Shown one piece after another: positions 4,150-5,854 of a stretch of 42,624 nucleotides of DNA. The translations under genes were made by a program, and so were the position numbers. Each line of letters opens with the position of its first letter. The first letter of the stretch is position 1. The DNA is from Myxococcales bacterium (GTDB taxonomy: Bacteria > Myxococcota_A > Polyangia > Polyangiales > Polyangiaceae). The notes under the pieces were generated by a model, which saw only the letters and a list, made by a program, of their open reading frames with translations, searched no databases and had not been told where the DNA came from. The DNA lies in the NCBI GenBank assembly GCA_016704525.1, contig JADIZX010000009.1, forward strand, positions 1 through 42,624, written 5' to 3'.

Positions 4150-4540
4150 CTACTGAAGTACCACCTGTCCACCCCAATCTCCCGTTCCGCCCGACGACAC
4201 GCTCAGGCTAATGTCGAAGGCTCCGGCGTCGAAGGACTTGCTCTCATAGGTGCCGGCTCCAATCAGATACGAGCCGACCGGCAGCTTCGTGAGCGTCGCA
4301 GTCGGCACGGTAGCTGTCCCATCGGCGAAGTCGTACTCGCACGAGAGCACATGCACGGGGTATCCTCCCGTCTTCCAAAGCGTGAAGCCGATCTTGCCGA
4401 CCTCCCCGGATCCTCCGCTCCACGAAAGGACGATATCCTGATTGCGGGGGAGGCGTTGACCGCTCACGAGGACCGGCCCGGTGACCGTAAAACTCTTGGG
4501 TGTTCGGAGGGTCTCGCGGAAGGCAGGCACCGCGCCGCCC
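4150..4540 (-). CDS. C-terminal domain (about 130 aa) of a protein whose upstream part is replaced by the G/C-only tract
   Basis: Well-behaved coding sequence (FTVTGPVLVSG...GSYLIGAGTYESKSFDAGAFDISLSVSSGGTGDWGGQVVLQ, beta-rich) ends at a stop at 4150. Upstream of about 4540 the frame continues into sequence that codes only Gly/Pro/Ala/Arg. The true N-terminus is unknown. Confidence 0.35.
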
Positions 4541-5854
4541 CCGGGGGCGAACCCCCCACCCCCCCCCCCCCCCCCCCCCCCGGGGGGGGCCCCCGGGGGG
4601 CCCCGGCCCGGCGGGGCGGGGGGGGGGCGCCCCCCCCCGGGGGGCGGCCAGCGGCGGCAAGGGGGCCGGCGCCGGCCGCCCCCCGGCCCCGACCCGCCCG
4701 GGGCGGGGCGGGCCCCCCCCGGGGACGCCCCCCCCCCCGGCCCGGCCCCCCAACCCCCCCCGCCCCGGGGGGGCACCCCGGCCCCCCCCCACCCCCCCCC
4801 CCCCCCCCCCGCCGGGGGGGCCGCCCCCCCGGGGCGGGGGCCCCCCCCGGCCGCCGCCCCCGCCCCCCGCGGCGCCGCGCCCGCCCGCCCCGCCGCGGCG
4901 GGGGGGGGGGGGGCCGCGGCGGGGGGGGGGGGGCCGAGCCGGGGCGGCCACCACCCCCCCGGCGGGGGGGGGGGGCGGCGGGGGGCGGGGGGGGGGGGGC
5001 GGGGCGGGGGGGAGGGGGCGCCGCCCCCCCCGCCCACGAACCCCCCCGGGGGGGGGGGGCCCGCAGGGGGCGACGCCGCCCCGGCCCGCCCCGGCCCGGG
5101 CGCCCCGGGGCGAGGCGGGCCACCCCCCCCCCGGGGGGGGGGGGGGGCGGGGGCCCGGGGCGGCCCGGCCCCCCCCCCCGGCCCCCCGCCCCCCCCCCCC
5201 CCCGGGGGCCCGGGGGGGGGGGGGGGGGGCCCCGGGGCCCCCCCGGCCCGCCCCCCGGGGGGGGGCCCCGGCCGGCGGGCCGGGCCCCCGGGGGGGGGCG
5301 GCCCCCGCGCCCGGGGGGCCCGGCCCCCCGGGGCGCCGGGGCCCCCGCCCCGGCCCCCCCCCCCCGGGCCGGCCCCCCCCCCCCGGGGGGGGGGCCGCGC
5401 CCCGCGGCGGGGGCCGCCCCCCCGGGCGGGGGGGGCCCCCCCCCGCCGGGCCGGGCGGGGCGCCGCGCCGGGCCCGGGCCCGAAGGACGGGGCCGGCCCG
5501 GGGGGGGGGGGGGGGGGCCCCGGGCGGGCCCCCGGGCCCGGGGGGGCCCCGGGCCCGCCCGGACGCCCCCCCCCGGGGGCGCCCGCCCCCGGGCGGCCCC
5601 CCCCCCGGCCCGCGCCCCCCCCCCCCCCCCCGCCCGGCCCCCGCCCCCGCCCCCCCGCCCGGGGCGGGGGCCCCCCCCCCGGGGGGCCGCGCCCGCCCCC
5701 CCCCCCGGGGGGGCCCCCCCGCGCCCGGGCGGGGGGCCCCGGGGGCGGGGGGGGCGGGGGCGGGCGGGCGGGGGGGGGGGGGGGGGGGGGGGGGGGGGGG
5801 GGGGGGGGGGGGGGGGCGCGGGGCCCCCGGGCGCGGCCGCGGGGGGCGCGGCGG
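4515..5854. repeat. T-free, almost A-free G/C-only tract (1340 nt) with homopolymers up to about 54 G (5770-5823) and about 23 C (4559-4581); probable artefact
   Basis: Direct reading: there is no t between 4515 and 5854 on the + strand, and a occurs only about 25-30 times. There are long G and C runs. All six-frame ORFs in it (587, 525, 472, 467 aa and so on) contain only G/P/A/R. Confidence 0.9.

Follow-up and report, generated by a model that had tools for sequence, protein, structure and literature searches.

A 1.3-kb tract of G/C homopolymers beside a type I specificity gene in a myxobacterial contig is very probably a local failure of sequence reconstruction

The closest described counterparts of a long tract of G and C homopolymers in an assembled bacterial sequence are mis-polished or unpolished, poorly supported segments of Nanopore metagenome assemblies. 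We analysed such a tract in a window of 42,624 nucleotides from a Myxococcales bacterium (contig JADIZX010000009.1 of the GenBank assembly GCA_016704525.1), the window being the whole stretch of DNA under study. The tract resembles these segments in being a local defect in a high-quality window, in that the adjoining gene has frameshifting indels and wrong homopolymer lengths, in lying within a strain-variable island, in being accompanied by a second defect at a GC hairpin, and in that a sister long-read assembly has hsdS indels of its own. It differs from them in containing no T, in having lost 90% of A, in homopolymer runs of up to G47 and in extending over 1.3 kb with hardly any change in length; a long-read consensus ordinarily contains errors in the form of scattered indels, unlike the collapse to two letters seen here. 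We know of no documented basecaller or polisher failure with exactly such a signature, i.e. A and T turned into G or C similarly often and a length kept within 5 nt.

Other known systems resemble the tract less closely. Poly-G arising from dark cycles is a well-known artefact of two-colour Illumina chemistry and likewise yields long G homopolymers devoid of biological meaning, whereas the tract has equal amounts of G and C, surviving A's, colinearity with the true sequence, a length of 1.3 kb and an internal position. Phase-variable contingency loci and G-quadruplex motifs share with it the presence of G or C runs beside a restriction-modification specificity gene, a classic site of phase variation. 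A contingency tract, however, is one run of roughly 8-20 nt that keeps its position among relatives and varies in length, whereas the tract consists of hundreds of runs over 1.3 kb (about 370 G/C runs), and its relatives carry no run at the corresponding positions. A baseline for genuine T-free sequence in high-GC myxobacteria is provided by the complete genome of Sorangium sp. So ce134 (L022, 18918-19229), whose stretch of 312 nt is the longest natural one without T that occurs in 1.44 Mb of related loci. This coding stretch, also T-free on one strand over a long distance in a genome of ~70% GC, contains 23% A, has a longest homopolymer of 5 and is read in one coherent frame as a Glu/Arg/Ala/Lys-rich repeat (…AAKERERAAEEREREKQRAA…), in contrast to the window tract with 2% A, runs of up to 47 and no meaningful frame. 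The same 1.44 Mb of related high-GC loci contain no comparable G/C tract, the longest G/C-only stretch being 75 nt (none of at least 100 nt), and no G/C homopolymer of at least 12 nt.

By direct count, positions 4515-5854 form the longest T-free stretch in the window, with 662 C, 647 G, 31 A (2.3%) and no T in 1340 nt, in agreement with the first-pass annotation, made from the letters alone, which had described this interval as free of T with about 2%, or a few dozen, A's. The next longest T-free stretch in the 42.6-kb window measures 65 nt, and with T at 14.7% outside the tract the log10 probability of finding no T in 1340 nt is about -92.5. The longest C run has 23 nt (4559-4581), exactly as had been reported, whereas the G run of about 54 previously read at 5770-5823 has to be shortened to 47 nt of pure G at 5770-5816, followed by CGCGGGG at 5817-5823; a real G47 run would be highly unstable in replication owing to homopolymer slippage. 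Homopolymers of at least 7 nt are concentrated in the tract, which holds 48 of the 58 present in the window, and G/C runs of at least 7 nt account for 12.9% of runs in 4538-5847 vs 0.05% elsewhere. The GC content reaches 92-98% in three 500-nt bins over the tract vs about 64-81% in the other bins. Outside the tract the window, of ~70% GC, shows long clean open reading frames, so that the problem is local.

The tract affects gene prediction. All six frames are open across it, which is trivial because each stop codon or its complement requires a T on the + strand, and an open frame of 665 aa composed of Gly, Pro, Ala and Arg crosses it. Tandem Repeats Finder returned only inconsistent, low-identity periods typical of low complexity and no true repeat unit. 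ARAGORN called a tRNA-Pro (ggg) of 97 nt on the - strand at 5320-5416, which we rejected as spurious, there being no Rfam tRNA at this position; the only Rfam tRNA match in the window is a tRNA-Ser at 22969-23053.

Comparison of the same locus in other assemblies shows what the tract replaces. The sister assembly L001 (contig CAWKVH010000008.1 of GCA_963852875.1, 814 kb) was the sole contig found by an exact look-up of the HsdM protein and is 99.1-99.7% identical to the window over 1-4540 and 98.7% identical over 6543-18811. Positions 4515-4537 and 5848-5854 match L001 at 100% and are genuine sequence lacking T by chance, leaving an artefact core at 4538-5847 in which the window departs from the true sequence with 1310 nt of G/C homopolymer runs. 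According to a global alignment, L001 has 1305 nt of ordinary sequence of ~66% GC in this place, in which a lipoprotein-like gene of 310 aa is present with its opening 181 codons and hsdS with its final 8 codons and stop codon, the two being separated by 736 nt of spacer. A scan of metagenome contigs with a 27-mer from the left flank gave a single match, L095 (JGI metagenome contig Ga0073904_10066555, 2254 nt), which agrees with L001 at 99.4% from end to end and accounts for 937 of the 1305 replaced nucleotides. An ENA short-read contig with a k141-style name (L092), found via the neighbouring antitoxin-like gene (window 3767-4006), enters the replaced interval by 152 nt with sequence of the L001 type, its alignment to the window ending at 4540. 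In a four-way alignment, L001, L095 and L092 differ by one SNP in the aligned part and the G/C tract is present in the window alone. The true sequence is thus contained in three other assemblies and has the same length, its last 368 nt (L001 12942-13309) being supported by L001 alone. The first-pass annotation had regarded the tract as a sequencing or assembly artefact lying over real sequence and had named beforehand ~1.3 kb of ordinary coding sequence in place of the tract as the outcome that would confirm this; independent assemblies of the locus have ~1.3 kb of ordinary sequence there. We assign a probability of about 95% to the reading that the tract is no DNA of the organism and instead represents a local sequence-reconstruction failure in this assembly, in which ~1.3 kb of ordinary sequence was turned into G/C homopolymer noise.

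Of the genes cut by the tract, L001 has the 310-aa gene complete and hsdS with its stop codon. On the left side the window sequence is clean as far as 4537, and the lipoprotein-like gene at 4150-4537 on the - strand, a full 310-aa gene in L001 (13705-14637), retains its C-terminal ~128 codons and stop codon intact. Its N-terminal ~181 codons (58%), including the signal peptide and the lipobox MAASSIAGFLLLVWFVGCGG, are overwritten. This part of the earlier claim that two genes are overwritten holds, whereas the loss of the hsdS 3' end is confined to its last 8 codons and stop codon, and the bulk of the overwritten sequence consists of the 181 codons of the left gene and the 736-nt intergenic spacer. 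No Pfam family matches the left gene. A word-indexed protein search with its C-terminal domain returned nothing, so that an exhaustive HMMER search was needed, which found 219 relatives of the surviving domain among 1.84 billion representative proteins. Most of the top hits, typically 270-340 aa in length, carry the domain near their C-terminal end, indicating that the N-terminal half is missing in the window. Next to this gene lies a CcdA-like antitoxin gene (3767-4006, - strand, 79 aa; Pfam CcdA, below the curated cut-off), and downstream of and overlapping it an ORF of 128-142 aa with no Pfam hit. The pair spans 3384-4006 on the - strand, between the lipoprotein-like gene and a 17-nt VNTR, and is probably a toxin-antitoxin pair.

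The right side of the tract borders on a type I restriction-modification system, with hsdR, hsdM and an hsdS organised as TRD1-CR1-TRD2-CR2, the window hsdS being frameshifted and without a stop codon. Pfam annotates the L001 gene calls accordingly (N6_Mtase/HsdM_N for hsdM, a weak Methylase_S match for hsdS and ResIII/EcoEI_R_C for hsdR), and dozens of loci can be aligned with the two conserved regions of hsdS, at 6543-6913 and 5861-5950. All hsdS segments lie on the - strand. The distal conserved region (…LLAKAFRGELVPQDPTDEPAAVMLARLRAAETAAP) at 5848-5950 is a perfect island of ~100 nt near-identical to L001, and only the final 8 codons and stop codon (…AAETAAP, then AKPTKSRR and stop in L001) are lost in the tract. 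The adjoining TRD2 at 5951-6540 is a different allele from that of L001. Its readable N-terminal half shows 37% amino acid identity to the L001 TRD2 and 30-35% to the TRDs of other loci; a tblastx comparison of the TRD2 region with the loci gave mostly low-complexity noise, and TRD homology is genuine only in this half. The distal half of TRD2 is frameshifted and contains a G10CCG13 patch at 6258-6282, read as poly-Pro on the coding strand, that looks like a miniature of the main tract; as the TRD2 allele differs there, L001 does not serve as the true sequence for this patch. The central conserved region and TRD1 at 6541-7376 are near-identical to L001 apart from indels at 6906 (G7 vs G8), 7129-30, 7184 and 7241-44 and scrambled spots at 6943-6953 and 7166-7177. 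The listed indels in TRD1/CR1 break the frame in the window, and L001 reads through them.

The window hsdS accordingly runs in three different frames between 7376 and 5855, with frameshifting indels within 5951-7250, and the view of the first-pass annotation that hsdS runs cleanly into the tract does not stand, the gene having lost its frame several times before reaching it. The L001 hsdS has frameshifts of its own, at the counterpart of window position 6738 and towards the end of TRD2. The presence of frameshifts at different places in the two copies makes both look like long-read consensus sequences, and the frameshifted state of hsdS reflects either consensus errors in both assemblies or a decaying gene. 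From hsdM (7373-8809, - strand, intact, 478 aa) onward the sequence quality is normal again. The difference between the TRD2 alleles (window 5951-6540, L001 12276-12801), flanked by perfectly conserved CR1/CR2 boundaries, suggests TRD exchange between strains. The type I system is split, hsdR (12787-16260) lying apart from hsdM/hsdS (5848-8809) with a DUF559-like ORF, a 243-nt repeat array, an M78-peptidase gene (10286-11398) and small ORFs in between, and hsdR is adjoined by a Transposase_31 gene (16554-17648). With 98.7% identity to the sister assembly, the restriction-modification island (recorded over 9719-17648) has diverged further than the housekeeping regions, which are at least 99.9% identical.

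We also considered whether the window is a noisy copy of L001, which is ruled out by the differences outside the tract being synonymous or of VNTR type. The hsdM genes differ at 16 nucleotides without any amino acid change, and 10 of 1157 residues differ in HsdR, the window protein not being on record. Among the matches listed in a HsdM scan of genome contigs, relatives are at most 89% identical, in addition to one fragment of 98%. One window allele is matched exactly in a Logan short-read contig and absent from the L001 assembly, and the ppk region is at least 99.9% identical to several wastewater short-read contigs. Apart from the hsdS region, the larger indels relative to L001 concern a 17-nt repeat at ~3195, where the difference amounts to 34 nt, and a 243-nt array. 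The window thus is a genuine separate strain or assembly and no corrupted L001 copy, and, the strain being different, its true sequence under the tract could deviate in detail from that of L001.

The tract is not independent of the sequence it replaces. Its ungapped identity to L001 at offsets 0/-1 is 0.39-0.41 vs 0.33 +/- 0.011 for shuffles, and its gapped identity is 0.527 vs 0.437 +/- 0.022 (maximum 0.474) for 30 unrelated null segments. When divided into 80-nt blocks, seven of the first eight (4540-5180) lie above the 95th percentile of the null at offsets of -6 to +3, as does the block 5420-5500, the remaining blocks being unrecognisable. Over the first ~640 nt, GC-rich islands and 23 true A's are retained in register, and exact in-register words include CCGAGCCGGGGC, CCACCA, GCCCACGAACC and CGACGCCGCC, some of them 10-12-mers (CCGAGCCGGGGC and GCCCACGAACC, for example). 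The tract is therefore a degraded image, colinear with the true sequence and faintly legible.

In the alignment of the tract with L001, true C is kept at 78% and true G at 79%, true A becomes G 110 times and C 98 times and is kept 23 times, and true T becomes C 118 times and G 76 times and is never kept. Nearly all A's remaining in the tract thus sit on true A's, and the strand asymmetry between A (23 kept) and T (none kept) argues for a one-strand, read-level origin. Simple conversions do not describe this pattern. A purine/pyrimidine-preserving change of A to G and T to C would keep the base class, but no more than 72% of the aligned positions agree in class, and real sequence could not yield G47 in this way; a change of A to C and T to G, as in the loss of a colour channel, is contradicted by the confusion matrix. 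We know of no mutational process that would eliminate T completely, remove 90% of A's and at the same time interchange ~20% of G with C.

A second, small G/C patch lies downstream of a patatin-like gene at 27156-27168 (G13). In an Illumina wastewater contig (L097), the place of this patch and its flanks is taken by ~33 nt folding into a GC hairpin of 8 bp, and the sister long-read assembly (L096) is wrong at this site too, with another, shorter version. This is a second, small case of the same type of G/C-homopolymer error. The assembly behind the window thus fails repeatedly in the same manner, rendering difficult spots as G/C homopolymers.

The window contains several repeats besides. A 243-nt tandem array of 3.8 copies with 96% matches (11457-12371), located between hsdR/DUF559 and the M78 peptidase gene, holds 19-nt sub-repeats and perfect short hairpins (CCCCTCTCCC…GGGAGAGGGG), with related partial copies at 9223-9409 and a further repeat site at 12322-12429. 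The 17-nt VNTR GCGGGCCCTCACCCCTC is present in 5.2 copies at 3195-3282 and differs from L001 by two units. Similar repeats occur in the locus L016, and the repeats of the window may belong to a myxobacterial REP/MITE-like family.

As the cause of the tract, a local collapse of long-read basecalling or consensus that was beyond repair by polishing is most likely. The most likely route is a long-read metagenome assembly made from Nanopore reads only with Flye and Medaka, or in a comparable way, in which a read segment with poor basecalls or little support may have supplied the contig backbone over about 4.5-7.25 kb. The locus is a strain-variable restriction-modification island with alternative hsdS TRD alleles. 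Polishing would then have left the worst 1.3 kb untouched, since good reads fail to align to noise that is only 40-50% identical, and would have repaired the neighbouring 1.4 kb only in part. The errors are found on one flank only, the hsdS on the right side having frameshifting indels, a homopolymer-length error and the G10CCG13 patch. Three loci recovered with HsdM (L002, L011 and L063) are MFD MAGs, which provides context and no proof for the window; MFD MAGs are Nanopore-only Flye assemblies polished with one Medaka round (PMC12313526).

Low-quality long-read sequence incorporated into the contig was one of two causes put forward in the first-pass annotation, and it is the one that fits better, given the homopolymer-length errors and frameshifting indels next door and the patches at 6258-6282 and 27156-27168. 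The other, by which no-signal poly-G reads from two-colour NextSeq or NovaSeq chemistry would have been assembled into the contig or used to polish it, fits poorly and we regard it as very unlikely. Long G runs are indeed present, i.e. G47 at 5770-5816 and G13 at 27156. However, G (647) and C (662) are interleaved on one strand, true A's are retained and ~640 nt stay in register, neither of which dark-cycle reads would produce, and the tract extends over 1.3 kb away from the window ends, far beyond the length of short reads. With one colour channel lost, A should turn into C and T into G, whereas A to C (98) is accompanied by A to G (110) and T to G (76) by T to C (118). The neighbouring indels and homopolymer-length changes are typical of long reads. 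The tract thus neither consists of G alone without relation to a template nor carries the substitutions of a lost channel.

A corruption after assembly, in which the stretch would have been changed by a program or during file handling, or supplied by a model, would account for a length close to the original (1310 vs 1305 nt) and for the sharp return to perfect sequence at both boundaries. We give it a similarly slim chance, since small patches with the same type of error are present within hsdS and, 21 kb from the tract, at a GC hairpin, and the adjacent 1.4 kb shows graded consensus errors of the indel type. In addition, the likeness to the true sequence fades and returns within the tract, which corresponds to a degradation of signal and not to the substitution of a block.

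The possibility that the strain really carries a 1.3-kb G/C-only segment, such as an extreme G-quadruplex or slipped-strand region or a product of A/T to G/C hypermutation, is close to negligible, having as its only support the presence of the tract in the window sequence, against which stand three assemblies of the same population that are ordinary there, the destruction of the lipoprotein-like gene and removal of the hsdS stop codon, the swapping of ~20% of G with C besides the loss of every T and 90% of A's, and a largest natural T-free stretch of only 312 nt with 23% A in the 1.44 Mb of related loci. A real tract, having arisen from ordinary sequence with which it is colinear, would imply either a so far unknown mechanism that changes A/T into G/C or an extreme element prone to forming DNA structures beside a restriction-modification specificity gene.

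With a local reconstruction failure as the preferred reading, the tract is no real feature and has no biological significance, its value lying in quality control. It yields false gene calls, as illustrated by the 665-aa open frame and the ARAGORN tRNA-Pro at 5320-5416, and two places in the source assembly, 4.5-7.25 kb and 27.16 kb, call for a warning flag or another round of polishing. Screening long-read MAG collections for G/C-only stretches of at least 100 nt or G/C homopolymers of at least 12 nt would catch such errors. For the organism itself, the tract hides the start of a lipoprotein-like gene and may give an exaggerated picture of the damage to hsdS.
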